From a bacterium (lineage in GTDB: Bacteria > SAR324 > NAC60-12): DNA of 64,000 nt. A program made the translations under genes and the position numbers. Every line of letters begins with the position of its first letter. The first letter of the stretch is position 1. Below are positions 35,891-61,739 of the stretch, in pieces. The stretch covers positions 160,001 to 224,000 of the forward strand of contig CBDBHR010000025.1 of assembly GCA_965205865.1 (NCBI GenBank). Reading direction: 5' to 3'. Under the pieces are notes generated by a model. The model ran no database searches, was not told the DNA's origin, and worked only from the letters and a program-made list of their open reading frames with translations.

Positions 35891-36307
35891 CGCAGCTCTT
35901 CTCCCTCTCCCTCGAAGGGAGAGGTCCGGGGTGAGGGTGCCGCCACGGAGCTTGCTCTTCTTTTTCCCTCTCCCTCGAAGGGAGAGGTCCGGGGTGAGGG
36001 TGCCGCCACGGAGCTTGCTCTTCTTTCTCCCTCTCCCTCGAAGGGAGAGGTCCGGGGTGAGGGTGCCACCACGGAGCTTGCTCTTCTTTCTCCCTCTCCC
36101 TCGAAGGGAGAGGTCCGGGGTGAGGGTGCCGCCACGGAGCTTGCTCTTCTTTTTCCCTCTCCCTCGAAGGGAGAGGTCCGGGGTGAGGGTGCCGCGATTT
36201 ACCGCGATATTCCCGGTTTTTGCAAAAGCGCAACCGTGAATTCGGACGTTGCCATCAAGAACAACTTCAAGGCGGTGGATTTCCCACTAGGAGGAAAATG
36301 CTCATGA
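35539..36307 (+). pseudogene. hsdM: Internally deleted, frameshifted hsdM
   Basis: Matches the N-terminal ~115 aa of the 39880 gene, jumps out of frame to the repeat region and [13 protein letters not shown], then to a C-terminal remnant. SAM-binding and NPPF motifs are missing. Confidence 0.9.
35900..36190 (+). repeat. Tandem array, five hairpin cores, 63-bp period
   Basis: CCCTCTCCCTCGAAGGGAGAGGTCCGGGGTGAGGGT cores separated by near-identical linkers. Confidence 0.95.
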
Positions 36308-36549
36308 CAGTCAATGAGTTGATCGAACTACTCCAAAAATATCCCGCCGGACTGCGCGTAGTAGTGAACGGTTACGAAGAGGGTTACGACGACCTCTCAC
36401 CGCAACAAATCTCTATTGCGACGATTTGCCTGAACACCGGGGTCCATCTCTGGCAAGGCCGGCATGGAGACCCGTCCTTCTCGATGGAAGGGACCACGGA
36501 CGAGGAAGAAACCGTCGATGCTCTGGTCCTCCGTCGCGAATCCAATTGA
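36304..36549 (+). CDS. Small hypothetical protein
   Basis: SD AGGAGG; ATGA overlap with the hsdM remnant; MTVNELIELLQKYP...VVVNGYEEGYDD. Confidence 0.7.
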   Translation: MTVNELIELLQKYPAGLRVVVNGYEEGYDDLSPQQISIATICLNTGVHLWQGRHGDPSFSMEGTTDEEETVDALVLRRESN

Positions 36550-36572
36550 TGGAGGCAATCCGAAGGCAGAAC

Positions 36573-36989
36573 ATGGTCGATCACGAAAAATTTCGAATGT
36601 CGCTCAAGCGACTGGAAGAGCAGTACGGGAATTACCCGGCACACGACACTTGCTTGCCCGATTTGATTCGGGAAGCTGTCGCAGAATCAGCAATCCAGCG
36701 TTTCGAGACCTGCTATGACTGTTTGTGGAAGGTATTGAGACGATACCTGATTGAAGAATTGGGTCTCGCGGAAACGCCCAACAGCCCCAAGCCCCTCTTT
36801 AAACTGACTCACGAGAACACTCTATTCGACGCATCACTGGAGCAATGGCTGATCTATGCGGACAGGCGCGTAGATACGACCCACGACTACAGAGGTGAGA
36901 AAACACAAGCCTGCCTGGACATCATGGACGATTTCATCGACGACGCCATCGGCCTCTACCAGACCATGAGCGGGGAGACATGGGGATAA
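36573..36989 (+). CDS. HEPN toxin (HepT/HI0074-like), copy 1
   Basis: [17 protein letters not shown]4HXY motif RVDTTHDY. Confidence 0.85.
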
Positions 36990-39203
36990 ACCGGCCCATC
37001 GACATCACGGCGGAGCAGCGCAAAACACTTCTGGCGTTGCTCGAGAAGCATTTACCGAACACGACCACCTGGGTCTATGGCTCTCGTATCCAATGGAATG
37101 CGCGGCCTCAATCCGATCTCGACATGGTGGTCTTCACATCCCCATCGCAAGAAAGCCACGTATCCGCGCTCAGGGAAGCTCTCGAAGAAATCAACCTCCC
37201 ATTTCGCGTCGATCTGTTCGTCTGGGACGATGTGCCTGAGTCTTTCCGAAAGCACATCAAGAGGGATCATATCGTGTTGATTGCAACCAACCATTCCGAC
37301 GGCTCCGAGAGCCACCTGGAAGTGGCGGACAAAGACCACGTGGTATTTCGGGAAAAAATGGGAAGAAAGCCTCAAGTAAATGGTGAGTGGCATAAGGGTT
37401 GGTGCGAACTGCCATTTAGCGAAGCAGTCCAACTCAACCCAACAGTCTCTATCAACCGCGGTACTGTTTACCCGTTCGTCGACATGAGCGCCGTAAACGT
37501 CGGTTCTCGCTTCGCATACGCTTCGGAGCAACGCCTATTCAAGGGAGGAGGCTCCAGATTCCGGAACGGAGACACCCTGATGGCTCGTATCACTCCTTGC
37601 TTGGAGAATGGCAAGATTGCGCGCTACCAAGCAGTCGACTCCGTCAGCGTCGGGCATGGCTCGACGGAGTTCATAGTCATACGTGGACGCCCGAAGATTA
37701 CAGACAACGATTTCGTCTACTACCTGACCAAATGGGAGGAAGTCCGCAATTATGTGATTGGGCAGATGACTGGAACCTCTGGCAGACAGCGAGTGCCCAC
37801 GGACGCTTTGGACCATCTGATGGTTCCCCTTCCACCCTTATCCGAACAACGCGCCATCGCCCACATCCTGGGCACGCTGGACGACAAGATCGAGTTGAAC
37901 CGGCGCATGAACGAGACCTTGGAAGCGATGGCGCGGGAGCTGTTCAAATCCTGGTTCGTCGATTTCGATCCCGTCCATGCGAAAGCCACCCTGAAACGCC
38001 AAAGCCCTCCGCCAAAACCAGACAAATGCGGAGGGACTCCTCTGGCACTACTTGCGCAACAAACAACTGGACGGTCACAAATTTCGACGTCAACAGCCAA
38101 TAGGCCCCTACATCGTGGACTTTGCCTGCATGCCCCGGAAATTGATCGTCGAACTGGATGGTGGCCAACATGCTAAACAAGAAGCCAATGATGACAAGCG
38201 TAATACATATTTAAAGGACAAGGGTTTCCGCATACTGCGCTTCCGGAACAACGAAGTCTTCGAGAATTGTTTCGGCGTACTGGAGAGCATTTATACCGCC
38301 CTGCATCATCACCCTCCCCTCGAGGGAGGGTCGAAAGACGCCAGTCTTTCGGGGAGGGGCTCCCCCCCACCGCATCAACCGTCGCCTGCCGGCTCGGTTT
38401 CTGCGACTCCCCCTCGAGGGGGGAGTGAGTGGACCCCGGAACGCGCCCGCGCCTATCTCGACAGCATGGACGACGACATCATGTCCCTGTTCCCCGACAG
38501 TTTCGAAGACTCAGAATTGGGAAAGATTCCAAAGGGGTGGGAGGTGAAGACGTTGGAGGAGAATGGAACGATAATCACGGGCAAAACTCCGAGCACTCGT
38601 AACCCGAATTTCTACGGAGATGACGTTCCGTTGTTGAAGATCCCCGATATGCGCGGAAAGATACATGTAGTGGAAACAAGCACGATGCTTTCAAGAGAGG
38701 GAGCGTCCTCACAACCGACAAAGGCCCTATCTTCCGGTAGCGTTTCAGTCAGTTGCATAGCCTCGCCGGGTTTGGTTGTCTTGAATCACCAAGAGACCCA
38801 TACCAACCAGCAAATCAACAGCATCATCCCTAAAGACAAGCGAGCTGGCAAATATCTATTCTGGACATGTAGAAGACTGTCGACAGAAATAATTTCGGGG
38901 AGTAGCGGAGGATCTATTTTTGGCAATATGAACAAGTCAACATTTGGCGCCCTACTAATCCTGAACCCGGAGTCAACGCTTGTTCGCATGTTTGATATTT
39001 TGATCACTCCAATACACAACCAAATACTATTGAATGAGCAACAAAAAATTCTACTAACACGCATCCGGGACATTCTGCTGCCAAAATTAATGTCGCGGAA
39101 ATATTCGATACTTTCGCATACAGTTATGGTCAAGTGGATGAAGGAACACTTTATCGATACGCGCAATCGAGGATTCCCGAATTGCAACAGCCGTATCTCC
39201 TGA
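36980..39203 (+). pseudogene. hsdS: MNT::HsdS(TRD)::DUF559::TRD fusion, frameshifted and 3'-truncated
   Basis: Split into ORFs 36980-38176 and 38052-39203 by a 116-bp deletion relative to copy 2; HsdS similarity ends at LLPKLMS (~39095). Confidence 0.88.
38309..38428. repeat. Inverted pair of REP-like double hairpins (copy 1)
   Basis: Homologous to 45069-45188. Confidence 0.85.
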
Positions 39204-39706: not shown

Positions 39707-40231
39707 ATCTAAAACTATATTTTCGGATTACTTGATATATTCCAGTCAAGACATGTAGAGTTGCCCCGGAGCGGGATGCCGGACTAATTTCCGATCGTGC
39801 TGATCCAAGCCCTCATCAGGGTGGCGGGACGATCCTGATCCATCTGAAAATGAATAACCAGTGAACTAAAAGGAAACAGGTGAAAACGGATGTGAAATCG
39901 CGGGACAATGGCGCCATCACGGGTTACGAAGCCGAACTGTGGCGCATGGCCGACACCCTGCGCGGCAGTATGGATGCCGCCGAATACAAGCACGTCGTCC
40001 TCGGTCTCATCTTCCTCAAATACATCTCCGATGCCTTCGAGGAAATGCGCGCCCGCCTCGAAGAAGAGCGCACACAAGGCGCTGACCCGGAAGACCCGGA
40101 CGAGTATCGCGCCGAGAACATCTTCTGGGTGCCGGCCAAAGCGCGTTGGACACAGCTCAAGGCGCAGGCGAAGCAGCCCACCATCGGCCAACTCGTCGAC
40201 GACGCAATGGCCGGGATCGAGCATGACAACC
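39702..40231 (+). repeat. Copy 2 of duplicated leader + hsdM 5' block
   Basis: Near-identical to 35362-35890. Confidence 0.95.
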
Positions 40232-41628
40232 CGGCGCTCAGGGACGTGCTGCCCAAGGATTATGCGCGCCCCGCGCTTGATAAACAACGACTCGGCCAAC
40301 TCATCGACATGATTAGTAATATCAGAGTGGGTGATCAGGAAGCGCGCTCCAAGGACGTGCTGGGTCGCGTGTACGAGTATTTCCTCTCTCAGTTCGCCAG
40401 CGCCGAAGGCAAGAAAGGAGGCGAATTCTACACCCCGCGTTGCGTCGTCAAGCTTCTTGTCGAGATGCTCGAACCCTGGCAGGGACGAGTTTACGATCCC
40501 TGTTGCGGTTCGTCCGGCATGTTTGTGCAATCTGTCGAATTCATCCGAGCCCACGCTACCGGAAACGGCAATGGCGGGAAAATACCACGGGGCGCCAAGG
40601 CTGTCTCCATCTATGGCCAGGAATCGAACTATACGACCTGGCGGCTTGCCAGAATGAACCTCGCCATTCGAGGTATCGAAGGTCAGATTGCTCACGGTGA
40701 CACCTTCCACAATGACCGCCACCCCGACCTCAAGGCGGACTTCATCCTCGCCAATCCGCCATTCAATATTTCCGACTGGGGAGGGGGGCAACTCACTGAC
40801 GACAAGCGCTGGCAATACGGCATCCCACCCAAGGGCAACGCCAACTTCGCTTGGGTGCAGCACATCGTCCATCACCTCGCGCCCAATGGCACAGCCGGCT
40901 TCGTCCTGGCCAACGGATCGATGTCGTCGAACCAGTCTGGTGAGGGAAATATCCGCAAAAGCCTGATCGAAGCGGACCTGGTGGACTGCATGGTAGCGCT
41001 GCCGGGCCAACTCTTCTATTCCACTCAGATTCCCGCCTGTCTCTGGTTCCTGGCAAGGGACCGCCACACCTCCCGCGGCAAGGTGGGTCTGCTATCCGGG
41101 CGTGACCGGCGCGGCGAAGTGCTCTTCATCGACGCGCGCAAACTGGGCCGTATGGTCGACCGCACTCACCGCGAGCTGACCCATGAGGACGTTTCCCGCA
41201 TCGCCGACACCTACCACGCTTGGCGCAACTCTTCTCCCTCTCCCTCGAAGGGAGAGGGCCGGGGTGAGGGTACGACGACGAAGCTTTCTCCCTCTCCCTC
41301 GCAGGGAGAGGGCCGGGGTGAGGGTGCGACGACGGAGCTTTCTCCGTCTCCCTCGAAGGGAGAGGGCCGGGGTGAGGGTGACGCGATTTACCATGATATT
41401 CCCGGATTCTGCAAAAGCGCGACCTTGGATGAGGTACGCAAACACGGTCATACCCTCACCCCTGGCCGCTACGTAGGGGCAGAGCGACAAGAAGACGATG
41501 GCGAGCCATTCGAAGTCAAGATGGGGCGCCTCACCGCCCAGTGGCGCGAACAACAGTCTGAAGCCACCAGACTAGACGCTGCTATTGCCGCTAACCTGAA
41601 GTTACTCGGATTTGGAGAAAACCGATGA
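39880..41628 (+). CDS. hsdM: Type I R-M methyltransferase subunit M
   Basis: [37 protein letters not shown]. Confidence 0.96.
41233..41379 (+). repeat. In-frame tandem array, three hairpin cores, 54-bp period, inside hsdM
   Basis: CCCTCTCCCTCGAAGGGAGAGGGCCGGGGTGAGGGT-type cores encoding [13 protein letters not shown]. Confidence 0.95.
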
Positions 41629-43373
41629 CTTTCAGCGATAAAGAACTCAAACGTCAGCTCAGCCTTGGAGAGGACACTCAATGGGAATTCAAGCAGATCG
41701 TCTTTTCACAGAGTCGCCCAAGAAGTCCAAGCCGCGACGATCTGGCAGATGAGATTGCTGCTTTTGCCAATGCAGACGGGGGAGTACTGCTCTGTGGCGT
41801 CACCGACGAAGGCGTAATTCAAGGTATGTCTCGTGAAGAGATCGTCGAGTTGGATTCTTTTCTGGTCGAGGTTAGCTCCGACTCCATCAAACCGGCCGTT
41901 CGTATCAGCACCTATCACAGAGAACTGGATGGCAAGCGACTTCTCCTGGTTGAAGTACCTCAGAGCGGATCGCAGCACGACAGCCCGGGTGGGAGCTACG
42001 TTCGGGTAGGTGGGTCAAAGCGCCGAATGACAAGCGATGAGCGGTTACGCCTGGCACAGCAGCGTAGCCAAGCGCGATTCCTGTGGTTCGACAAGCAGCC
42101 CGTGCCCAACACCGGATTGGGGACGCTGGACAAAGCGCTTTGGAATCCATTGTTGAACGCAGAAGGCAGGGCCTATCCGGATACGGCGCTAGAAAAAATG
42201 GCTTTTCTCGGACGAGACGAGCACGGTACGGTGCGAGCGACCGTCGCCGGCCTTCTCTTTTGCAGCCACGCCCCGGAAGAATGGTTACCCAACGCTTGCA
42301 TCACCGCCACCTACTACCGCGGTACTGATCGATCCTCCGGCCAACTCGACACCCGGACGATCAGCGGCCCCCTCAATCGACAAATTGCCGAAGTGGTCGC
42401 CTTTGCCTTGCGTAATATGCGCGTTGGAGCCTACAAAGACCCGGCCCGCACGAATTTGCCGCAGTACAGTGCGGAGGCCCTGTTTGAGGCCCTCGCCAAT
42501 GCCGTGGCCCACCGCGACTATTCGATGCGCGACAGTCGGATTCGCCTTTCGATGTTCGCCGACCGTGTCGAAATCCAGTCGCCGGGCGCCTTGGCTAATA
42601 GTTTGAGGGTAGATGAATTGGAATATCGGCAAGCGACACGCAACGAGGTCCTTGCCTCGGTCTTTGGCCGGATGCCAACCAGCGGTATCCAGGGGGCGGG
42701 TGGTCGGCTTTTCATAATGGAGCGCCGCGGAGACGGTGTCCTCGTCATCCGGCGTGAAACCCGCGAACTGGCCGGGCGTTTGCCACGATTTGATTTGATT
42801 GGGGGTGCGGAACTTCGTGTTACTCTACCAGCAGCTTCCACCAAGCCCAGCCCAGCCCGCGTTCTCATTACCGTGCGCGCTGGTGACCAGCCGCTTGCCG
42901 ATGCGGAGGTACTGGTGCTGTTCCCGAATAAGACTTGGAAACGGGCTACGACAGATGCGCTGGGCGAGGTCATTGTCGGCCTTCATACGATTGATCTGCC
43001 GATGACCGTGTTCGCCGCTGTCCACGGCTTTGCCGCGCACTGCGAACACGAGTGGATGCCCGCAGAAGGTGTGCTCGCCATTGAACTGAAGCCACTTCCC
43101 GACGGGGGTGCCGTGATTTTTTCCGAAGGGAACGGCAAAATTCCGGGGCTGAATGGGTGGCTGAATCCGATTCGAGACACCCTCGATCGAACCTATCTCT
43201 ATGCCTCGAACATTGCCATTAACCAAGGCCAGCAGCAGCCGGTGCATTTTGCGCACGGCGAAGACCTACGGCTCACCGATGTCAATGGCGTCGAGATGAG
43301 CGGGCGAATCGTGGAGATTGTGGGCCGGTGCGCGCTGGTGGAATACCGCGCATATCCGGAGGAGAAGGTTTGA
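41625..43373 (+). CDS. AlbA_2 (Schlafen-like) + HATPase_c_4 protein with beta-rich C-terminal domain
   Basis: [52 protein letters not shown]. Confidence 0.82.
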
Positions 43374-43375
43374 GT

Positions 43376-43792
43376 ATGCTCAATTACGACAAGTTTTATC
43401 GGTCCCTCAAACGTCTGAAAGAGCAGCACGAAAATTACCGGCAACTCGACGTTTCACTACCGGAACTGACCCGGGAAGCTATCGCGGAATCAGCGATCCG
43501 GCGATTCGAGACCTGTTACGATAGTTTGTGGAAGGTATTGAGACGATACCTGATTGAAGAATTGGGTCTCGCGGAAACGCCCAAGAGTCCCAAGCTCCTC
43601 TTTAAACTGGCCCACGAGAATGACCTGTTCGACGTATCACTGGAGCAATGGCTGAGCTATGCGGACAGACGCGTGGGTACGACCCACGACTACAGTGGTG
43701 AGAAAGCGCAAGCCTGCCTGGACATCATGGACGATTTCATTGACGACGCCATCGGCCTCTACCAGACTATGAGCGGGGAAAAATGGGAATGA
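43376..43792 (+). CDS. HEPN toxin (HepT/HI0074-like), copy 2
   Basis: IRRFETCYD; RX4HXY motif RVGTTHDY. Confidence 0.87.
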   Translation: MLNYDKFYRSLKRLKEQHENYRQLDVSLPELTREAIAESAIRRFETCYDSLWKVLRRYLIEELGLAETPKSPKLLFKLAHENDLFDVSLEQWLSYADRRVGTTHDYSGEKAQACLDIMDDFIDDAIGLYQTMSGEKWE

Positions 43793-45966
43793 ACCGGACC
43801 ATCGACATCACCTCCGAACAGCGCAAAACCCTTCTCGCCTTGCTCGCAAGACATTTACCGAACACGACCACCTGGGTCTATGGCTCCCGCGTCCAATGGA
43901 CCGCACGCCCTCAATCCGATCTCGACATGGTGGTCTTCGCATCCCCATCACAAAACGGCCGGGTTTCCGCACTCAGGGAAGCGCTCGAAGAAAGCAACCT
44001 CCCCTTTCGCGTCGACCTCTTCGTCTGGGATAACATACCCGAACAATTCCACAAACATATCGAAGCAGAGTATGCTGTGTTGGTGGAGAAAGAGCAATTT
44101 GCCGACAGTGAATGTTTGCAAACCATTGGAGAATATTCACCGTTCTCCTACGGTAAAGGGCTACCAGATCGCAAGCGGCATCCATCAGGCCAAGTTCCCG
44201 TATTTGGTTCTAACGGCATAGTGGGATATCATGACATCTCATTGACCAACAGCCCAACAGTTATCGTTGGACGAAAAGGAACAGTTGGAGCAGTTCACTA
44301 CTCGCCGGTTCCATGCTGGCCCATCGATACAACATTTTTTGTGACAGACAGAGACTCAGAAATTCTCAGGTTCAAGTATTATACCTTAAAGAGCCTCTCT
44401 TTCAACAGCATGAACACCGACAGTGCGGTCCCTGGGTTGAATCGGGATGCGGCACATGCACTTTACGTGCGAGTACCCGCGAAGCAGGAACAACGAGCCA
44501 TCGCCCACATCCTGGGCACGTTGGACGACAAGATCGAGTTGAACCGGCGCATGAACGAGACCTTGGAAGCGATGGCGCGGGCGCTGTTCAAATCCTGGTT
44601 CGTCGATTTCGACCCCGTTCATGCGAAAGCCACCCTGAAGCGCCACGATGCCCATCACTCCCCCCTTGAGGGGGAGTCGATGAGGCAAGGGCGAAGCCCG
44701 CAGGCGAATCGGTGGGGGGTCATCAAACGCCAATACAGCCAACAAACCCTGCAAAACGCCAAAGTCCTCCGCCAAAACCAGACGAACGCGGAAGGACTCC
44801 TCTGGCACTACTTACGCAACAAACAAATGGACGGTCACAAGTTCCGACGCCAACAGCCAATTGGTCCCTACATCGTGGACTTTGCCTGCATGCCCCGGAA
44901 ATTGATCGTCGAACTCGATGGTGGCCAACATGCTAAACAAAAAACCTATGATGAAAAGCGTGATACATTTTTAAAGGACAAGGGTTACCGCATACTGCGC
45001 TTCTGGAACAACGAAGTATTCGAGAATTGTTTCGGCATACTGGAGAACATTTATGACGTCCTGCATCATCACCCTCCCCTCGAGGGAGGGTCGAAAGACG
45101 CCAGTCTTTCGGGGAGGGGGTCCCCCCCACCGCATAAACCGTCGCCTGACGGCTCGGTTTATGCGACTCCCCCTCGAGGGGGGAGTGATTTTCATGGGGA
45201 AGCCATGAAGGACGAATTCAGAGACAACACCCCCCAAGGGGGGAGTGAGTGGACCCCGGAACGCGCCCGCGCCTATCTCGACGGAATGGACGACGACATC
45301 ATGTCCCTGTTCCCCGACAGCTTTGAAGACTCCGAGTTGGGAAAAATTCCAAAGGGATGGGAGGTTGGCGTGGTCAGCCAACTCGCGGAAAGAATTCAGA
45401 ATGGGGGAACTCCAAAACGATCCAAACTAAGATATTGGGAGCGTGGAGAAATTCCTTGGCTGACCTCCGGTGAGGTCAGACAGTCTTTTATTCTCGGAAC
45501 CCAGGACTTTATTTCTAAGGATGGTCTTGCAAAAAGCTCAGCGAAAATGGTCCCACCACGTTCAATTCTGGTGGCTCTATACGGTGCAACTGCTGGGCAA
45601 GTGTCCATGAATTATCGGTCTCTTTCAACAAACCAAGCGGTGTCAACCGTAATTCCAAGTACGGGGAACAGGTATTTCTGTTTGGTAAGTCTCAAGTTGG
45701 AAGTGTCTGATCTTGGAAACAGAGCTGTGGGGTCGGCACAGCAAAACATCAGTAAGAAAGTAGTTGAAGAAACTATTGTTCTGCTACCTCAGATTGAACT
45801 TCGATCAGCATATGATTTTATGGTGGAGTCACTTTTTGATCGAATTTTCCACAATCTGTACGAAAACCAAACCCTCTCCGCCCTGCGGGACAAGCTGCTA
45901 CCGAAGCTGGTGTCGGGCGAAATTCGTATCGATGAAATTGAAAAACTGATAGAGACAACAATATGA
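43783..45966 (+). CDS. hsdS: Type I R-M specificity subunit with N-terminal MNT domain and internal DUF559 endonuclease
   Basis: [15 protein letters not shown] (GSX10DXD); TRD1; [22 protein letters not shown]559 [15 protein letters not shown]...VELDGGQH...LRFWNNEV; SELGKIPKGW; TRD2; RDKLLPKLVSGEI. Start may be ATG 43789 (ATGA overlap). Confidence 0.93.
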   Translation: MGMNRTIDITSEQRKTLLALLARHLPNTTTWVYGSRVQWTARPQSDLDMVVFASPSQNGRVSALREALEESNLPFRVDLFVWDNIPEQFHKHIEAEYAVLVEKEQFADSECLQTIGEYSPFSYGKGLPDRKRHPSGQVPVFGSNGIVGYHDISLTNSPTVIVGRKGTVGAVHYSPVPCWPIDTTFFVTDRDSEILRFKYYTLKSLSFNSMNTDSAVPGLNRDAAHALYVRVPAKQEQRAIAHILGTLDDKIELNRRMNETLEAMARALFKSWFVDFDPVHAKATLKRHDAHHSPLEGESMRQGRSPQANRWGVIKRQYSQQTLQNAKVLRQNQTNAEGLLWHYLRNKQMDGHKFRRQQPIGPYIVDFACMPRKLIVELDGGQHAKQKTYDEKRDTFLKDKGYRILRFWNNEVFENCFGILENIYDVLHHHPPLEGGSKDASLSGRGSPPPHKPSPDGSVYATPPRGGSDFHGEAMKDEFRDNTPQGGSEWTPERARAYLDGMDDDIMSLFPDSFEDSELGKIPKGWEVGVVSQLAERIQNGGTPKRSKLRYWERGEIPWLTSGEVRQSFILGTQDFISKDGLAKSSAKMVPPRSILVALYGATAGQVSMNYRSLSTNQAVSTVIPSTGNRYFCLVSLKLEVSDLGNRAVGSAQQNISKKVVEETIVLLPQIELRSAYDFMVESLFDRIFHNLYENQTLSALRDKLLPKLVSGEIRIDEIEKLIETTI
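44655..45188. mobile_element. Candidate REP-flanked DUF559 element inserted in frame in hsdS
   Basis: 25-bp inverted ends (24/25 match) at 44655-44679 and 45164-45188; 534 bp = 178 codons. Mobility is inferred, not shown. Confidence 0.6.
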
Positions 45967-46134
45967 GCGAAACAACAACACAGCAGGTTCCTGATAGCAT
46001 TCTTCCCTATCTCAATGAGATTGCGGAGCGTCTTTGGTCGGGGCGCGCAGCCGTTATGGTAGGGGCAGGGTTCAGCAGAAATGCCAAACCGAACAGTACT
46101 TCATACCCCGACTTTCCTGACTGGTCCCAGCTAG

Positions 46135-47966
46135 ACCCTAGCCGAAAAGGGTTTCGAAAATAGTAAATATAACCGATTGGATTCTATTTGATTCTCTATT
46201 TGATTCAATATGACGAGAAAACGATTTATTTTTGTTTTTTATTCGCCCACAGCACAGTTTTTATAGGGAAAAAATCTTTTTTGGACATACTTTCCTCGCC
46301 CCTGCTCATATTTCACACTCCCCCATTGAATATTCAGGCCGCTTGTTTGAGTTGTCTTTTTTTCAACTCAATCATTTTGCAAAAATTATAGGTTAATGCT
46401 TTTTCCAGCAACTCTGCCCGAACGTTTTCAATCCCTCTGCGCATAACTTGTCCGAAATGGAAACGATGCTTAAGATGAAACATCAACGACTCTGCAGCAG
46501 ATCTTCCATTTCGTGATTCCAAATAGATTTCACTTTCCCATTCTTCAATCGGGGTCATCTTTTTTCCCTTTGCCCCACTAATACTAAAAACCTTAACGCC
46601 TTTGCCCATCCACTTTTCTCTGATCGCCTGATTGGCATATCCATCATCAAGGCTCACTTCAGAGGGAATGGTGATGGTGCATCGCAAATGTTCAACAAGG
46701 GCAGGGTCGAGTTGCCCTGAATCAGCAGCATTGCCCTCCGGAGTAATTAACACGGAAATAAAACCATTTCCGCTCCTTCCTAATTGAGGCTTATATCCGA
46801 TAAGCGCTTCTCGATCTCCCTTTTGAATATAAGCCGAACTCTGATCGGAAAGACTCAATACTTTCTCAGTAGAAGGAACCTTCTTTTCTTCAAAAACTCT
46901 TTGATGACAGTAGATGATTACCCGTTGCAAATTAGAAATATCTTCATTCATCATTTCAATGAGGCGAATCAAACGCGTTTTCCGAGAAGGGGGGAGAAGA
47001 GCTTTTTGGGCACGGATATCCACCTTTGCCATTTCTTTTAAAAATTTCCCATGAGCGCTTTGAGCTTTCTTCAATAGGGTTTTGTAATGTTTTTTTCGCT
47101 TCGTTTTACTGTCCTTTTTACCTGTCTCAAAAGCAATCATCTTAGAGAGCTTATTCATCTCCTTGATGAGGAAATCAAAATTTCTTTCACTGATCTTAGC
47201 GATTCCAAATGTATCAAGGGAACGCCCTCGATGGTAGCTTCGCTCCACGAGACGAGTCAATATCGACGAATCAGTAGGCCAAGCTGTATTTCCTTTTACA
47301 GAGGTGCTATCCAGTTTTAAAATATCAAAATCGTCCAACTCTTCATTGAGAACCATTCGAATTTGAGCATCGAAAATAAACTGTCTGGTCTCGTTGCTGA
47401 CAGCATTGACATTATCAAGGATTGTACTCGCTCCCGGCATTTTCAATCCACGGTTGAGCAGAAGCAGATGCAGTGTGATTGACTCTGAAAGAAATATTTG
47501 GGCCGTTTGGGATTTGATACTTCCTAAGTATCCCCGAATCATCATAAAAAGGTAGACTAAAAAAGCCGACATCCGAGGACACCCTATTTCCAGCCTCAGT
47601 TCTTCCGGCTTCAATTCCTCATCTTCTACGGGAAGATGAGGAAGCCATGGATTCCGGGCTTCCTGCCATCGTTTATCCTCTAAACGCTCTTTCTTTTTAT
47701 TTCTTGCGTATTTCTCCAAATCCTGTTCAATTTTGTCCAATATCTCCGGCTCTCGCTCAGACAATTGATCAAGTTCTGATAAGAAATTTTCAAATTCTGT
47801 ATCAGGAGCGCTTAAAAAAAGATGTTTTTCTGCTCGAATGAATGGTTTCATTTTGGGTGCCATAATTCTTAATATTGAAGTTATTCACAGTTATTTCAAT
47901 GAATTATGGCACTTTTTAACCTCAAGTTAAAGATATAATTCTAAAAAATACCTTTTCGGCTAGGAT
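46135..47966 (-). mobile_element. Insertion sequence (ISNCY/IS5-like), 1832 bp
   Basis: TIRs ACCCTAGCCGAAAAGGG / ACCTTTTCGGCTAGGAT; 8-bp direct repeat CCAGCTAG at 46127-46134 and 47967-47974. Confidence 0.92.
46334..47863 (-). CDS. DDE transposase (ISNCY/IS5-like)
   Basis: LDSTSVKGNTAWPTDS, KVLSL, LDDGYA, RSAAESLMFHLK; lies between the TIRs. Confidence 0.88.
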   Translation of the reverse strand: MAPKMKPFIRAEKHLFLSAPDTEFENFLSELDQLSEREPEILDKIEQDLEKYARNKKKERLEDKRWQEARNPWLPHLPVEDEELKPEELRLEIGCPRMSAFLVYLFMMIRGYLGSIKSQTAQIFLSESITLHLLLLNRGLKMPGASTILDNVNAVSNETRQFIFDAQIRMVLNEELDDFDILKLDSTSVKGNTAWPTDSSILTRLVERSYHRGRSLDTFGIAKISERNFDFLIKEMNKLSKMIAFETGKKDSKTKRKKHYKTLLKKAQSAHGKFLKEMAKVDIRAQKALLPPSRKTRLIRLIEMMNEDISNLQRVIIYCHQRVFEEKKVPSTEKVLSLSDQSSAYIQKGDREALIGYKPQLGRSGNGFISVLITPEGNAADSGQLDPALVEHLRCTITIPSEVSLDDGYANQAIREKWMGKGVKVFSISGAKGKKMTPIEEWESEIYLESRNGRSAAESLMFHLKHRFHFGQVMRRGIENVRAELLEKALTYNFCKMIELKKRQLKQAA

Positions 47967-50900
47967 CCAGCTAGATGATTGTTTTACGAGAAGATCCACG
48001 GCAGAAAACCTGGTACTCGGAGCAAATATCTCAGTGTGCCCAAACTAGCGGATGCGGTGCGAGCCGCCTTTGGGCGGCCAGCACTAGACCAGCTATTACG
48101 CGAGGTTATTCCGAATCTGGAATACGAACCATCACCAATCCAAAAGCAGTTACTCAATCTACCTTGGTCGGATGTATTCACGACAAATTACGACACATTA
48201 CTGGAGCGGGCATGCAATGCAGTCATCTCTCAAAGATATGATGTGGTTGTCAATAAAGAGGATCTGACATACTCGCAAAAACCACGAATCATTAAACTGC
48301 ATGGTAGTTTTCCATCTGATCGACCGTTTGTCATTACCGAGGAAGACTACAGGCGTTATCCTGAAAATTTTGCCCCATTCGTAAATACTGTCCGTCAATC
48401 ACTCTTGGAAAATACGCTTTGTCTGGTCGGATTTTCCGGGGACGACCCCAACTTCGTGCAGTGGATCGGATGGATAAGAGATAACTTGGGTGAAAAGAAT
48501 GCTCCCAAAATATATCTCATTGGCCTGTTTAACCTGTCAATCGCGGAGAAAAAACTTCTTGAACAGCGTAACATCTTTCTGGTTGAAATGTCTGAATACC
48601 CTGACATAAAGAGTGAAAATCATTATAAGGCAATGAAACGATTTCTTGAGTACCTACACTTAAGAAAAGAGGATGATAATAATCTTGGATGGCCAAAAGA
48701 AAATGAACTTTCGCATCCAGATCAGGATACAGAAAAAATAGAACAGCTTTCGCGACTTCTCCCAGTCTGGAAAAAACAGCGTCTTTCATACCCAGGATGG
48801 GTAATTGTTCCCGAAGATCGACGTAGCGTTCTTTGGAGAGATACCTTTTCTTGGCTCCATTATCTCTCTGCGACAGACAACCTCCCTGAATTAATCGACC
48901 TCGAATTCGCCTTCGAGCTGAGTTGGCGCATGGAAAAATGTCTCTGTCCGGTCTTCAGTAACCAAGTAGCATTTTTTGAAGCGATACTGGAAAAGTACCT
49001 GCCCTATGACGATGTGGAAACAAAGACTGATTCATTTCACATGCGATCAGCCGAAGTGAATTCTCAAGAGTCTGATCGAATCGATGTCAGGGAAATGTTG
49101 CCACACCTGCTACTGTGGATGTTACGATTTTACCGCGAAGAAGGGTTGTTGGAAAAATGGGCAAGACTGTGTGAAAAGATACAACAAAATGTCGAGAATT
49201 TATCCGCCGGACACAAAGCGTATTTCTACTATGAACGGGGCCTTTATGCGTTGTTTGGTTTGAACTTGCGGGAACTCAAAGAAATTCTGGCAGAATGGCA
49301 GGTCAATGAATCGTTACCATTCTGGGAGGCCAAAAGAGCGGGATTGCTTGCTGAAATCGGGCAAGTGGATGACGCGAAAAAAATTCTTGAACGATCACTG
49401 AAAGATATCCGCTCCAAACTGAATCTGAAATCGATTACATCGGATTATTCCTTGGTTTCACAGGAATCTTTTATAATGCTCTTACTGCAATACGTGCAAA
49501 CATCCGTAGCTTACAACAATGTTGACCGGTCAGAAATTCAAGCGCTTCGCAATGAATTTTCAGAACGCTGGAATGCGCTCAACCAGTATAAATGCGATCC
49601 ATGGAATGAATTGAAACTTTTTAGAAGCACTCTCAAACAACCTCCGGTAAAGCAATCAGAGGTCACAGAAAGGAATGAATTCGACATCGGACGGGTCACA
49701 CGAACGTACCAATTTGGCAGTGGGAATAAGGAAACATTGATCGCGTATAGTTTTCTACGTTTTTGTGAAGATGCGGGCATACCTTTCAAAATACCTGGAA
49801 GCATTATTGGGAAAGAAGCCGCAGAAGGGACGTTATCCTGGATCATGGAGTCTTCCCCGTACTGGGCATTGGCAACCATGGTTAGGATTGGCGATGAAAA
49901 CGTCGTAGATCATATTTTCAACAGGGCGTCCTTATCTAAAAAGGAGACAGCTTTTGTTGACAGTCTTATCGAAAAATATCTCTGCTGCCTTGAGCAAAGC
50001 GTGGCAGGTATCCGTACAGGGAGTGGTTTTCTAATGGACAATTTTGAGAAAGTACTGGCGGGAGTCGTCCCCGAGATTTTATCCAGACTGTGTTGCAAAT
50101 GCTCACCTCAATCAAGAGACCGGCTTTTCGACTTTCTCTTTGGCGTTTACCAGTCGGACCATAGAGGTAAGTATGGAGAAATCCGCAAGCTGACTGAAAG
50201 GCTTTTGAGTGCTTTCCCGGCTCAGCATCGTTATGATTTGATTCCGAGATTGTTGGAGTTTCCTGTCGTTGAAAGTTCCGACCCCATCGAAGCAAGGAAC
50301 TTCATTAATCCGTTTCACTTTCTCAGTCTCGAAATAGAATGGACCGAAACCTGGGACAAGCCGATAATCCCGGACGAAAAAGTAAATATTTTCCTTGAGA
50401 GAGCATCATCTGAACACTCCTACGTGCGGAAATGGGCAACGCACGAACTTGGCGAGTTGCATATCCTGGGACTGTTAACAGATAGTCAGATGGATAAATT
50501 TGCTGAGTCGCTCTGGAGTAACCTGGGTGATTTTGATCTCCCAACTGAAACCGATTACTATAAATTTGCCTTTCTGGAAATGCCTCATCCTCCGAGCATA
50601 GAGCCAATACTATTATTCAAAAACTATGTTGAAAGTGAGCAATTTCCCGTTCAGAAAAATCGCGAAGATCAAAGAATCACTTTTACTGGAGGAGATATCC
50701 CGCTCTGCAACGATATCGATAGAGCCAGCAAGCGTATCGAATGGTCCGAAGACGATGTCAATTCCATACTGGATCGCCTTGTTGAATGGTGGGACGCTGA
50801 CAAGGAGTATTTGAAAGCAGACGACCGCGCCGCCCCATTTGGTTCTCTCGCAGATGAATTCAAAGCGAGGTTTGCGCGTTTGGTGGACGTCTTGGCAGCC

Positions 50901-51891
50901 GTGATTACTCCCAATTTCAATCCGAGTGAAGAAGATTACAGAAAAAAGACGTTAGGGCGCCTAGTCATTGAACTTCTTGACTATGGGATTCCTGCGCTTC
51001 GTCTGCAGAGTGCCTGTCTTCACCTATATCCCGAATGGAAAGATGACGTTTTCCAGAGAATCGAAAACGGAATGACTTCCTCCGATCATGCAACAGTTAT
51101 CGACTGTCTTGAAGCATTTTTGGTCATTGCGGAGAGAAGCGAGTCGGACGCAGATAAAAACGACTTTTCAAGAATCTTGCACGTGTTGGCTCAGATGGTT
51201 CGCTGGCAAAAGAATACGGGTCTGGCGAGCGCACTCTTCACTATCGCTCAACTGACAAAAAAATTTCCTTGGGTCTTTACGGAGGAATTTGAACGGTTGA
51301 CGCTTATGGGGTTGCGTAACATTGCCAGGGATACCGCCACAAATGTGGATGGCGTTGACTTTGCTGATAAGTTGGAGATCCGGCGTGCGGCGGCAAGCCT
51401 GGCATATAACTTATTCGAGCACTACACCAGGCAGGGCAAACCTGCTCCTGATGCGATAACAGAATGGAAGAAAATTTGCCTGTCAGACAATGAATTCGCC
51501 GAAGTCAGAAACCAGTGGATACGACACTAGCTCTGATCTCAAGAAAGCAACCGTAAGGTAAGAATGGAGTCAGCGAGGAGCATCTCTACCTCCTTTTAAA
51601 GCAGTTAGATATTAAATCATTCCGTGACGGGAATTGTTCAATATAAGAAAGGCAGAAATTCTTAAAGCTATATCCTTTGTTCTCTCATGAGCCTGTTTTT
51701 CAAATTTTTTGTTAATCTCATGCAACCTATGTTTGCAAGAGTACGAGTAAATTCGGAAGAATCCCGATCCTCTCCACCTCGCGCGATACGCTGCTGCCGA
51801 AGCTGGTATCGAGGAAAATACGGGTGAAACACGAGTCGATTCTTCAACCCCTTAAACCAAGTCCAGATAGAAACGAACAAAAGGAAAGGGA

Positions 51892-58595: not shown

Positions 58596-61500
58596 ATGAC
58601 CACCATCACCGAATCCGATGTTGAACAGAGCGCGCTGGGCTGGCTCGAAAGACTGGGCTGGAGGGTTGTTCGGGGAGGCGACATCGCCCCCGGCACCGTC
58701 AATGCGGAACGTTTCGACTATGGGCAGGTGGTGCTGGAAAGACGTCTGCGCGATGCGCTTGCACGGCTCAACCCGGATCTTCCCGCCGTAGGGTTGGACG
58801 ATGCCTTCCGCAGGCTGACTCGCGCGGAGGGAGCGACGCTCGAAATCCGCAACCGCGCGTTCCACCGCATGATCGTGGATGGGATAACGGTCGAACACCG
58901 CGTCGACAACGGAAGAATCCGGGGTGCGCAAGCCCGCGTGATTGACTTCGACAGTCCCGCCAACAACGATTGGCTGGCGGTCAAGCAGTTCACCGTAGTC
59001 GAGAACAAGCATGAACGGCGTCCCGACCTGGCGCTGTTCGTCAACGGCTTGCCCCTGTGCTTGATTGAACTGAAGAACCCGGCAGACGAGGAAGCGACGA
59101 TTTGGACTGCCTGGCAGCAACTCCGGACCTACAAAGCCGAGTTGCCGTCGCTGTTTGCCATGAATGCGGCCCTGATGGTCTCGGACGGTATGGAAGCGCG
59201 GGTCGGCACGTTGACTTGCGGACGGGAGTGGTTCAAACCCTGGCGTACCATATCGGGTGAGACGCTGGCTGATGCTCACCTGCCCCAATTGCAGGTGATG
59301 CTGGAAGGTATTTGCGAGCCGCGCCGGTTCCTTTCACTGGTTCGTGATTTTATCGTATTCGACGACGATAGCAGCGGCATGCTGGTCAAAAAGATGGCAG
59401 GCTACCACCAGTTTCATGCAGTCGAGGTGGCGGTCGCCGAGACCCTGCGCGCCACCGAGTTGCAACAAGAGATCGAGCAGGTCTCTGATATAGGCCGCTA
59501 TAAATCGGGTCGTCAACCTGGAGGCGCGCCTGGCGACCGGCGCATCGGCGTAGTCTGGCACACCCAGGGTTCGGGCAAGAGCCTGACCATGGCCTTTTAT
59601 GCCGGGCGCATCATCCGCGAGCCGGCGATGGCCAACCCGACCGTGGTCGTGCTCACCGACCGCAATGACCTGGACGACCAGCTCTTCGGCACCTTCGCCC
59701 GTTGTCGTGACTTGCTTCGCCAACCACCGGTACAGGCCGAAAACCGGGCCGACTTACGCGACAGACTGGCGGTCGTATCGGGCGGCGTGATTTTCACCAC
59801 CATCCAGAAGTTCTTCCCCGAGGAGAAGGGAGACCGGCATTCCATGCTCTCGAAACGGCGCAACATCGTGGTCATCGCGGACGAAGCGCACCGCAGTCAA
59901 TACGACTTCATAGACGGATACGCGCGCCACATGCGAGATGCCCTGCCCAATGCCTCCTTCGTCGGCTTCACCGGTACTCCGATTGAACTTCTGGACGCCA
60001 ACACCCGCGCCGTATTCGGTGATTACATCAGCATTTACGACGTCCAACGCGCCGTCGAGGACAAGGCGACGGTTCCGATCTATTACGAGAGCCGGCTGGC
60101 CAGGTTGACACTGGACGAAGATGAGAAAGCGAGCATCGACCCCGAGTTCGAGGAGGCCACCGAGGGTGAGGAGATCGAGCGCAAAGAGAAGCTCAAGACC
60201 AAGTGGGCGCAACTCGAAGCAATCGTCGGCGCAGAAACGCGGCTCAAGCTGGTTGCCGGGGACATCGTCACTCATTTCGAACAACGCCTGGAAGCCCTTG
60301 AAGGCAAGGCGATGGTCGTCTGTATGAGCCGTCGCATCTGCGTCGATCTCTATGGCGAACTGGTGCGATTGCGCCCTGACTGGCACAAGGAAAACGACGA
60401 CAGCGGAAAAATCAAGGTGGTGATGACCGGCTCCGCATCAGACCCATCCGGCTGGCAAGCGCATATCCGCAACAAACTCCGGCGCGAGGCTTTGGCGAAT
60501 CGATTCCGTGACAACGACGATCCACTCCGTATCGTGCTGGTGCGTGACATGTGGCTGACCGGGTTTGACGCGCCGAGCCTGCACACCATGTATATCGACA
60601 AACCGATGCGCGGTCACGGGTTGATGCAGGCAATCGCCCGCGTCAATCGCGTGTTCAGGGACAAGCCAGGTGGGCTCGTGGTGGATTACCTCGGCCTTGC
60701 TCATGAATTAAAACGCGCGCTGGCGACCTACACCGAAAGCGGCGGCATAGGACGCACCGCGGTCGACCAGACAGAAGCGGTGATGGTGATGCTTGAAAAA
60801 TACGAGATCTGTTGCGGCCTGTTCCACGGATTCGACCGCTCCGGGTGGATTACCGGTACGCCGGCGGATCGGTTGAGCCTGCTGCCGGGTGCGCAGGAAC
60901 ACGTCCTGAAACAAGAAAACGGCAAGGACCGTTACCTGCATTCGGTACGTAATCTCTCTCAAGCCTTTGCGCTTGCCGTGCCGCATGAAGACGCGCTGCG
61001 CATCCGCAACGAGGTGGACTTCTTTCAGACCGTCCGGTCGGTGCTGTCCAAGCGAGCCACAGGCGATGTACGGCCGGAAGAAGAACTCGACCACGTGGTA
61101 CGCCAGATCATCTCGCGCGCTGTGGCGTCGGAGGGGGTGATCGACGTCTTTGCCGCAGCCGGATTGCAAAAGCCGGATATCGCGATACTGTCCGACGACT
61201 TCCTGGCCGAAGTGCAGGGCATCCCCCAGCGCAACCTCGCCGTGGAACTGTTGCAAAAACTGCTGAAGGGTGAACTTGCTACCCGCCGCCGCAAAAACGT
61301 GGTGCAGGCGCGCTCTTTCGCGGAAATGTTGGAACAGACGCTCCGCCGCTATCAGAATCGCACGGTCGAGGCGGCCCAGGTCATCGAGGAACTGATTCAC
61401 CTCGCAAAGGATATGCGCGAAGCCAACCAGCGAGGCGAGAAACTGGGTCTCGCGGAGGACGAACTGGCCTTCTACGACGCCTTGGAGAGCAACGATAGCG

Positions 61501-61739
61501 CCGTCCGGGTGCTTGGCGACGAGATCCTGCGGACGATCGCGCGCGAACTGGTCGAGACCGTACGCAGCAACGTGACCATCGACTGGACCATGCGCGAAAA
61601 CGTGCGCGCGAATCTTCGCGTGTTGGTCAAACGCACTTTACGCAAGCACGACTACCCACCGGATAAGCAGGAAAAGGCGACGCGGACCGTCCTGGAACAG
61701 GCGGAGGTTCTCTCCGGAGGGTGGGCTCTCTCGGGATGA
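58596..61739 (+). CDS. hsdR: Type I R-M restriction subunit R
   Basis: [57 protein letters not shown]. Confidence 0.97.

Follow-up and report, generated by a model that had tools for sequence, protein, structure and literature searches.

Within a 64,000-nucleotide window of a SAR324 bacterial genome (positions 160,001 to 224,000, forward strand, of contig CBDBHR010000025.1, GenBank assembly GCA_965205865.1), the specificity gene hsdS of a Type I restriction-modification system carries in its centre an in-frame cassette made of a DUF559 nuclease domain and three repeat units, U1, U2 and U3. The reading that we favour, with a probability of about 0.6, is a DUF559 cassette bounded by repeats of the BoxC/PIT/"intrastrand triplex motif" (TM) class and tolerated by the host protein as linkers plus a domain, in a nuclease-repeat partnership like that of repetitive extragenic palindromic (REP) sequences and REP-associated tyrosine transposases (RAYTs). 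This reading is built on direct observations, namely the anatomy of the locus, the association and polarity of repeats and nuclease genes, a series of alleles at the same HsdS position, the constraint on the repeats at the DNA level and purifying selection on the nuclease.

The host open reading frame (ORF) is stop-free throughout its 727 codons and encodes, in this order, a Polbeta/MNT nucleotidyltransferase (NTase), the first target recognition domain of HsdS (TRD1), the central helix, the cassette, TRD2 and the C-terminal helix (Table 1). Pfam matched DUF559 (PF04480) at aa 322-427 (E 1.9e-41, 140.7 bits, cut-off 20.6), Methylase_S as two stretches and the Polbeta NTase (PF18765) at aa 29-104; only DUF559/MTES_1575 was matched in the insert, with no Hint or intein splicing domain among the Pfam hits. 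Membership in HsdS is supported by the two Methylase_S stretches, by the helices at residues 234-273 and 671-710 of the AlphaFold2 (AF2) model and by the presence of hsdM and hsdR within the window. From host anchor to host anchor the segment measures 235 aa here compared with 23-38 aa in empty alleles, and the insert itself spans 534-594 bp. Its outer arms (44654-44679 and 45164-45189) each measure 26 nt and match as inverted repeats with 96% complementarity, and the 25-mer end (≤3 mismatches) has three matches in the window, 44655-44679 (+), 45164-45188 (−) and 38404-38428 (−), compared with 0 of 100 shuffled windows. An initial inspection of the DNA (hereafter, the sequence-only reading) had proposed about 200 extra codons in the central spacer of HsdS, read through without a stop, holding a complete DUF559 domain between three double-hairpin units and ending in 24/25 inverted repeats, all of which held up, with a weak fold for U1. 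It had missed that the terminal G-run of a unit mirrors the purine arm of hairpin 1, that the NTase is fused to HsdS and that a second, broken copy lies at 36980-39203. The alternative right boundary that it offered, a further GGGGGGAGTGA copy at 594 bp, turned out to be variable: the 60 bp at 45189-45248 that end with this copy are present here and in P0012, from another genome, and absent from the paralog in the window and from relatives' metagenome contigs (runs X3 and X5), which show the cassette form lacking them. In the full-length AF2 model (mean predicted local distance difference test score, pLDDT, 66.5), confidence is high for the NTase, the two TRDs and the C-terminal helix; the insert falls below 50 at residues 291-386 and 405-488, and the repeat-coded segments are of low confidence with no secondary structure.

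All three units share one layout, in which a pyrimidine arm, a loop and the complementary purine arm (hairpin 1) are followed by a spacer and a G-rich block mirroring the purine arm. Purine arm and mirror block are GGGGGAG/GTGGGGG in U1 and U3 and GGGAGGG/GGGAGGG in U2, and the spacer forming the second loop (35 nt in U1, 21 in U2 and 36 in U3) forms its own hairpin, hairpin 2. Folding was computed for single-stranded DNA with Watson-Crick pairs only and 200 shuffles per unit. U3, folded from the minus strand (−24.8 kcal/mol, z −6.32), and U2 (−16.6 kcal/mol, z −3.66) were each equalled by 0 of 200 shuffles; the U1 fold (−15.0 kcal/mol, z −1.84, 11 of 200 shuffles as good) is weak by this measure because its hairpin 2 is weak. 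An alignment of 45 units from the window, another locus of this genome and other genomes showed hairpin 1 and the mirror block to be nearly invariant, with 97.7% of cells paired across the two hairpins versus 34-52% with slid partners. As had been anticipated, hairpin 2 varies in sequence yet stays paired: 8 of its 10 pairs are changed on both sides, with a covariation score reached by 0 of 500 shuffles. The encoded peptide varies with the frame, the forward unit being translated as HSPLEGES… in some loci (L047, L048) and as ITPPLRGS… in others (L044, L050), with a TGA within the hairpin loop in the third frame; reverse units give TPPQGGSDW, LPLKGGVI or DSPSRGE followed by a stop. Since hairpin 2 covaries and the frames differ between loci, the repeat parts behave as DNA elements, and the constraint on the repeat acts on DNA and not on peptide.

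In their three-block layout the units agree with the BoxC/PIT/TM class, with an extra covarying hairpin in the second loop. They had been described as REP-like, a label that we abandon; they are not classical REPs with a GTAG head. BoxC/PIT/TM repeats were first reported in the 1990s and occur in more than 260 genomes, with no function reported in Holder 2015 (PMC4666352), where the E. coli consensus is given as CCCTCNCCC-N3-6-GGGNGAGGG-N3-GGGNGAGGG and the E. coli repeats are described as intergenic and tied to rearrangement. The likeness lies in a C-block, a complementary G-block and a third G-block mirroring the second, and also in abundance, frequent arrangement in arrays and a link to local rearrangement. 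Units beside DUF559 differ from the published N3 second loop, theirs being 21-36 nt long with its own covarying hairpin; the classical units elsewhere in the window (35904-36176 and 41230-41379) fit the consensus with a 3-nt loop. A further difference is one of location, only intergenic in E. coli (PMC4666352), and here in frame within genes and bracketing a nuclease gene.

To assess how general the pairing is, we scanned one genome per species and examined 80 DUF559 loci for pyrimidine/purine (Y/R) hairpins with a stem of ≥7 within ≤200 nt of the gene; the loci include Nitrospirota, Binatota, Latescibacterota, Chloroflexota, Acidobacteriota, many Pseudomonadota and others. A Y/R hairpin was present upstream in 63/80 loci, downstream in 68/80 and on both sides in 56/80. 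Near the gene, hairpin density was 5.02/kb (157 in 31,252 bp) compared with 0.11/kb farther away (34 in 309,587 bp), a ~45-fold difference, and 155 of the 157 near hairpins had the third block (1 mismatch allowed). Polarity was inverted around the gene, with 46 forward, 8 reverse and 18 ambiguous units and 1 with none upstream, and 48 reverse, 9 forward and 26 ambiguous units and 1 with none downstream. Where the purine arm is not mirror-symmetric, the third block matched it better as a mirror than directly in 116 cases, equally in 61 and better directly in 9. The association of repeats with DUF559 outside hsdS, on which the sequence-only reading had staked its proposal, is thus present in density and polarity alike. 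As for co-occurrence within genomes, which was part of the same proposal, repeats and DUF559 tend to go together: at least 3 TM-pattern matches were found in 13 of 14 relatives with DUF559 versus 5 of 27 without it, and this is a tendency and not a test because the 41 relatives are kin; within the genome studied here, TM units number 82 to 2 DUF559 copies. In-frame hosts other than HsdS include a YkuD transpeptidase (P0221) and a DUF1156/N6-methyltransferase protein (L111), and one cassette is fused to LipB (P0233). Full-text literature searches, with subscription journals outside their reach, returned no published description of the DUF559-repeat pairing; the papers listed for DUF559, judged by titles and abstract openings, included none on repeats, one mention being of a different family, DUF5590, and literature on triplex/BoxC repeats with an endonuclease or on in-frame endonuclease insertion in HsdS gave no account of it.

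Among the best 120 HsdS homologs listed, at least 104 carry PF04480. The empty sites that the sequence-only reading had called for are found at the same position, along with hairpin-only and filled alleles. Nitrospirales genomes were searched with the centre of an empty allele, and 35 of 201 matched at E ≤ 1e-15; together with earlier loci, this yielded 33 distinct centres, comprising 16 short ones (23-30 aa), 2 with hairpins only, 1 with a GIY-YIG domain and 14 filled ones (195-273 aa, with one to several units per side). Fourteen of the short centres are 23 aa long (…AKAEGRDPGLPKPLAD), one 29 aa and one 30 aa. The repeat-only centres are L150 (91 aa) and L151 (106 aa), and L150 is a deletion derivative of a filled allele, since what would lie between its two G-rich blocks, DUF559 with the pyrimidine arm of U2, is gone. 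Domain-less alleles were found among other proteins too: P0059, P0063 and P0073 have the flanks of filled alleles and no domain (…KRRAGAGNEWTLERARAYLD), and P0080 and P0108 retain one hairpin, again with no domain. A metagenome scan for the DNA of the P0059, P0063 and P0073 alleles did not return them and gave other centre variants instead. Ten metagenome loci have an uninterrupted 38-aa centre, …AAVRREHPDW(S/T)NAQVSRAA…, which is like the filled flanks and bears no trace of a repeat; in our reading, this is what the target subfamily looks like when unoccupied. A target duplication is not evident. In the allele L161, from a Nitrospirales genome, a GIY-YIG domain (1615-2016; Pfam E 3.7e-15) is inserted in frame at the same HsdS position, between duplicated PVRAKA segments, and the metagenome alleles L205 and L176 look like a GIY-YIG footprint (…AARTQTGDPVRAKA…). 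Nuclease domains and repeats alike thus appear to use the central loop of HsdS as a general landing site. Other inserts were also seen in HsdS centres, with a HALSKVEG segment recurring among L180, L182, L211 and L176 and a lone classical TM unit in L209.

A profile search found two DUF559 matches in the whole genome, both in this window and both within hsdS genes. The second gene (copy A; Table 1) has lost 116 bp, corresponding to 44646-44761, between short direct repeats; U1 and the start of DUF559 are gone and the frame is shifted. The otherwise invariant Trp408 is changed to Arg, and the 3′ end continues into sulfatase-like sequence. Because of this deletion, the frame shift, Trp408Arg and the run into sulfatase-like sequence, copy A is a decaying remnant, and the only intact DUF559 of the genome is the HsdS fusion (copy B), so that intact DUF559 would be produced here solely as part of HsdS. 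The two copies differ at 6 of 158 nt in the central helix and at 26 of 303 nt in the DUF559 core, and BLASTN gave no match between their TRD stretches. Such near-identical centres beside unrelated TRDs fit recombination or duplication through the conserved hsdS centre and do not point to two separate insertions.

The core of the nuclease is under purifying selection. It matches PDB entry 3HRL, an "endonuclease-like protein", with E 1.6e-29 over 94 residues, and the Asp, the Glu-x-Asp and the His of the fold are conserved; no function is stated for 3HRL, which stands alone, whereas the domain here is embedded in HsdS. D366, E377, D379 and H383 are among the positions invariant in 71 aligned cores, and the catalytic residues are probably among these four. 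The median ratio of nonsynonymous to synonymous substitution rates (dN/dS) was 0.13, with a maximum of 0.36, over 164 pairs of the close clade. Given the invariant residues and the low dN/dS, the domain is likely kept functional, whether standalone or within HsdS. In a tree of 79 cores, 15 HsdS-borne and 7 other copies form one clade spanning at least 6 phyla (SH-like approximate likelihood ratio test, SH-aLRT, 99), with standalone DUF559 copies nested inside the HsdS clade. Parsimony gives 5 changes of the HsdS context label, of which well-supported branches force only 1, suggesting repeated moves into and out of hsdS. Within this clade, the cores L054 and L057, from a Nitrospirales and a Binatia genome, are near-identical (branch lengths 0 and 0.024), which suggests a recent transfer between phyla.

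The genome holds 94 Y/R hairpins, of which 82 have a perfect mirror block (TM units). Here, then, the repeats are independent of DUF559 in their distribution, and the ratio of 82 to 2 resembles that of REP doublets (REPINs) to RAYTs. U1/U3-type units occur outside hsdS genes in a single array (L011, G000:C30:1064491-1065410) of about 13 units with a 63-bp period. On one side it adjoins a split N6-methylase gene and on the other a PLD-helicase gene of 1200 aa, in which HSPLEGES units are translated as part of the C-terminus; we regard it as a second defence locus invaded by the U1/U3-type repeat. That this array might be a CRISPR was ruled out, its 63-bp units repeating in full.

Metagenome runs X1, X3, X5 and X6 were examined as assembled contigs. 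In all four, the summed contig depth over 44470-44777 and 45086-45239 was 10^3 to 5x10^4, compared with ~10 on unique parts, and the hsdS centre and the repeat units are thus shared by many genomes or loci in these samples. The assembled contigs contained no usable evidence of excision, circles or inversion of the cassette: joints from 44679 to 45122, 45151 or 45152 have sides shorter than 30 nt and may derive from other loci, and contigs joining 45189 to 44654-44660 through 25-34 other letters probably stem from other repeat arrays.

Table 1. Features of the cassette-bearing hsdS locus, its paralog and the associated Type I genes (window coordinates)
Feature	Position	Strand	Evidence or remark
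Five classical TM units of 63 bp each in a tandem array, upstream of hsdS′	35904..36176	.	
Paralogous NTase-hsdS′ with broken cassette (copy A)	36980..39203	+	
Paralog units U2′ and U3′	38309..38428	.	4/122 nt differ from copy B (43783-45966)
hsdM of the same Type I system	39880..41628	+	Pfam
Three classical TM units in frame near the HsdM C-terminus, just past the N6_Mtase domain	41230..41379	+	
727-aa NTase-HsdS with cassette (copy B)	43783..45966	+	ORF, Pfam, AF2 model
N-terminal nucleotidyltransferase, in-frame HsdS fusion	43783..44097	+	Pfam PF18765 aa 29-104; fusion in most top homologs
HsdS central conserved helix and left host flank	44488..44654	+	6/158 nt differ from the paralog
U1, forward: hairpin 1 CTCCCCCC/GGGGGAG, hairpin 2, mirror G-block GTGGGGG; translated HSPLEGESMRQGRSPQANRWG	44655..44719	+	
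DUF559 core (Vsr-fold PD-(D/E)xK), aa 322-427, invariant D366, E377, D379, H383	44746..45063	+	
U2, forward: hairpin 1 CCCTCCCC/GGGAGGG, hairpin 2, mirror block GGGAGGG	45069..45120	+	
U3, reverse; right-hand inverted cassette end	45122..45188	-	
60-bp extension: small hairpin and degenerate hairpin 1 copy	45189..45248	+	absent from the paralog and relatives' contigs
Right host flank (WTPERARAYLDGMDDDIMSLFPD…), TRD2, C-terminal conserved helix	45249..45966	+	
hsdR, which has an HSDR_N nuclease domain of its own; further defence genes separate it from hsdS	58596..61739	+	

Taken as a whole, the cassette is a DUF559 nuclease gene bounded by inverted BoxC/PIT/TM-class repeats, of a type that is widespread, and in one HsdS subfamily it occupies the loop after the central helix. 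Read through in frame, the repeat DNA supplies linkers rich in Pro, Gly, Ser and Arg, and DUF559 an extra folded domain. The cassette probably travels with the conserved hsdS centre, which would recombine between hsdS genes and cross phyla, and decays through deletions between its own repeats. A REP/RAYT-like relation, in which each genome has a single nuclease gene and numerous repeats that carry none, appears most likely; the nuclease would recognise the folded end, be it the hairpin or the hairpin plus a third strand, and probably nick there, and nicking at the folded ends might spread or maintain the units. We infer that DUF559 binds or cuts the repeats and that new copies originate in this way; DUF559 may be what drives the repeats. 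The more ambitious proposal, that DUF559 is the missing partner enzyme of BoxC/PIT/TM repeats at large, a Vsr-fold nuclease that would spread or maintain these repeats by recognising their folded end of hairpin plus mirror block, is a tentative one that we would put at somewhat below even odds.

Several observations weigh against such a partnership. The covariation of hairpin 2 mostly separates two subfamilies and hence reflects few independent events. The kinship of the 41 relatives inflates the apparent independence of the co-occurrence count, and the 5 of 27 relatives without DUF559 hold 5-39 TM-pattern matches each; four of these five genomes are less than 90% complete, and G005 is 94% complete. 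The E. coli control genome gave no match in a search with the DUF559 model, and for the 23 TM copies of E. coli K-12 Holder 2015 (PMC4666352) found no transposase, integrase or mobility gene nearby. Fifteen matches to the Y1 transposase (Y1_Tnp) in the genome studied here might serve the repeats. BLAST among same-genome loci found no near-identical DUF559 copies within one genome, the best pair being 77% identical over 251 nt, and repeat pieces reaching 84-94%. At this level of identity there is no sign that the gene moved recently, and the within-genome copies are old. Of the REPtron-like selfish element envisaged in the sequence-only reading, the discrete cassette and its inverted flanks at other loci stand, and recent transposition of the gene is not visible. 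A stable enzyme gene with more homogeneous repeats itself resembles RAYTs and REPINs. Finally, the literature searches found no biochemical link between DUF559 and the repeats.

The presence/absence polymorphism at one HsdS site could also be produced by a homing-endonuclease element specific for the hsdS centre, in which DUF559 would cut empty alleles and be copied by repair, with the repeats as passengers or recombination aids. In L161 the same position is taken by GIY-YIG, another nuclease family of the homing type, whose footprint L205 and L176 resemble; moreover, a table in a review places VSR, DUF559 and DUF2726 in one group, with mention of a group I intron homing endonuclease (PMC3424549), and ShiLan is a homing insert that lies in frame and unspliced within a methylase gene (PMC11855218), the nearest concept in the literature searched. 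Homing is nevertheless unlikely, since DUF559 with the same flanks is found in many unrelated genes and intergenic sites that have no common target, repeats flank nearly all copies in fixed polarity, and standalone copies nest within the HsdS clade. We are similarly doubtful that DUF559 is a domesticated domain serving the Type I complex, for instance as a DNA-binding or nicking module, with the repeats as tolerated linkers in a permissive loop. The occurrence of PF04480 in at least 104 of the best 120 homologs listed, purifying selection on a core that keeps its catalytic-type residues, and the fact that the sole intact DUF559 of the genome is the HsdS fusion would all suit it, but the same HsdS subfamily includes empty and hairpin-only alleles, standalone DUF559 genes are equally constrained and have the same flanks, the paralog has lost the frame of the domain, and an hsdR with a nuclease of its own is present. 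The suggestion that HsdS thereby gained an extra nuclease likewise received no support, the locus having its own hsdR with a nuclease domain.

Two further explanations strike us as very improbable. Movement of the repeats by a Y1 (RAYT/IS200-type) transposase, with their adjacency to DUF559 a coincidence or a shared site preference, would draw on the 15 Y1_Tnp matches and on the spread of TM units over many DUF559-less loci of the genome; it is hard to reconcile with hairpins ~45-fold denser beside DUF559, in inverted polarity, across 80 loci, and with a cassette bearing the same units in at least 6 phyla. Little credence can be given, too, to an inversion switch in which the 26-nt inverted ends, 96% complementary, flip the cassette and leave HsdS off or truncated (phase variation): assembled contigs have no strand-changing joint at the ends, and the ORFs scanned next to hsdS included no recombinase gene. 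In its favour, a survey of predicted inversion targets shows enrichment of "DUF559 domain-containing protein" (odds ratio 14.3; PMC9881135), listed there with no comment and with no further DUF559 data.

The TM-bounded cassette that we favour has partial counterparts among known systems. In REP or bacterial interspersed mosaic element (BIME) systems, and in those formed by REPINs and RAYTs of the Y1/HUH type, an enzyme gene is accompanied by inverted hairpin repeats and many gene-less copies, and the gene rarely moves. Here as well, the gene has repeat copies in inverted orientation on either side, and many solo copies occur in the genome; the flanked gene differs in being a Vsr-fold PD-(D/E)xK DUF559 and not HUH, with Y1_Tnp matches lying elsewhere, and the repeats in combining a Y/R hairpin with a mirror block and lacking a REP head, and the cassette can sit in frame within proteins. 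Rickettsia palindromic elements lie in frame within protein genes and are tolerated as extra peptide segments, which likewise places repeats in coding sequence; their sequence is unrelated, and we know of no nuclease gene associated with them. With ShiLan (PMC11855218) and with inteins, the cassette shares a stop-free insert in a gene of restriction-modification type, a predicted loop-out and presence/absence polymorphism; the HNH nuclease of ShiLan is in another frame, whereas DUF559 is in the host frame, with repeat ends and no splicing domains.

If DUF559 were the partner of TM repeats, they would constitute a class of prokaryotic mobile element that relies on no known family of transposases or recombinases. 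With ends that lack stops in two of three frames, such a cassette could settle in frame within restriction-modification and housekeeping proteins. DUF559 is a very large family with, to our knowledge, no assigned role, and its fixed polar pairing with TM repeats across phyla makes both the role of DUF559 and the function and mobility of TM repeats testable by simple biochemistry. The HsdS case offers a natural allele series (empty, hairpin-only, filled and broken paralog) and a host protein that yields the nuclease solely in fused form, and the landing site bears on the diversification and decay of Type I specificity genes.

Some minor observations concern the surroundings of these loci. At both hsdS loci (43328-44097 and 36426-37290), an NTase_sub_bind (HEPN-like) gene precedes the Polbeta/MNT NTase-HsdS fusion, and the N-terminal NTase (PF18765) is common to most top HsdS homologs. 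The array at 35904-36176 lies within a 246-aa open frame that has no real family match. Downstream, at 45964-51530, a gene starting at the hsdS stop codon is apparently interrupted by an insertion sequence (IS; DDE_Tnp_1 ORF at 46334-47863, minus strand); beyond the IS lies a 1183-aa SIR2_2 frame, followed before hsdR by further SIR2, GmrSD_N and AAA_15/DUF3696 genes. Elsewhere in the genome, five of the Y1_Tnp matches, in 335-aa frames, fall within ~25 kb at G000:C29:722638-745882. In a genome of the same genus, a 1890-aa frame (L014, G001:C1:736323-736559) includes a hairpin unit and only the C-terminal part of DUF559, which is 62% identical to query residues 113-191.

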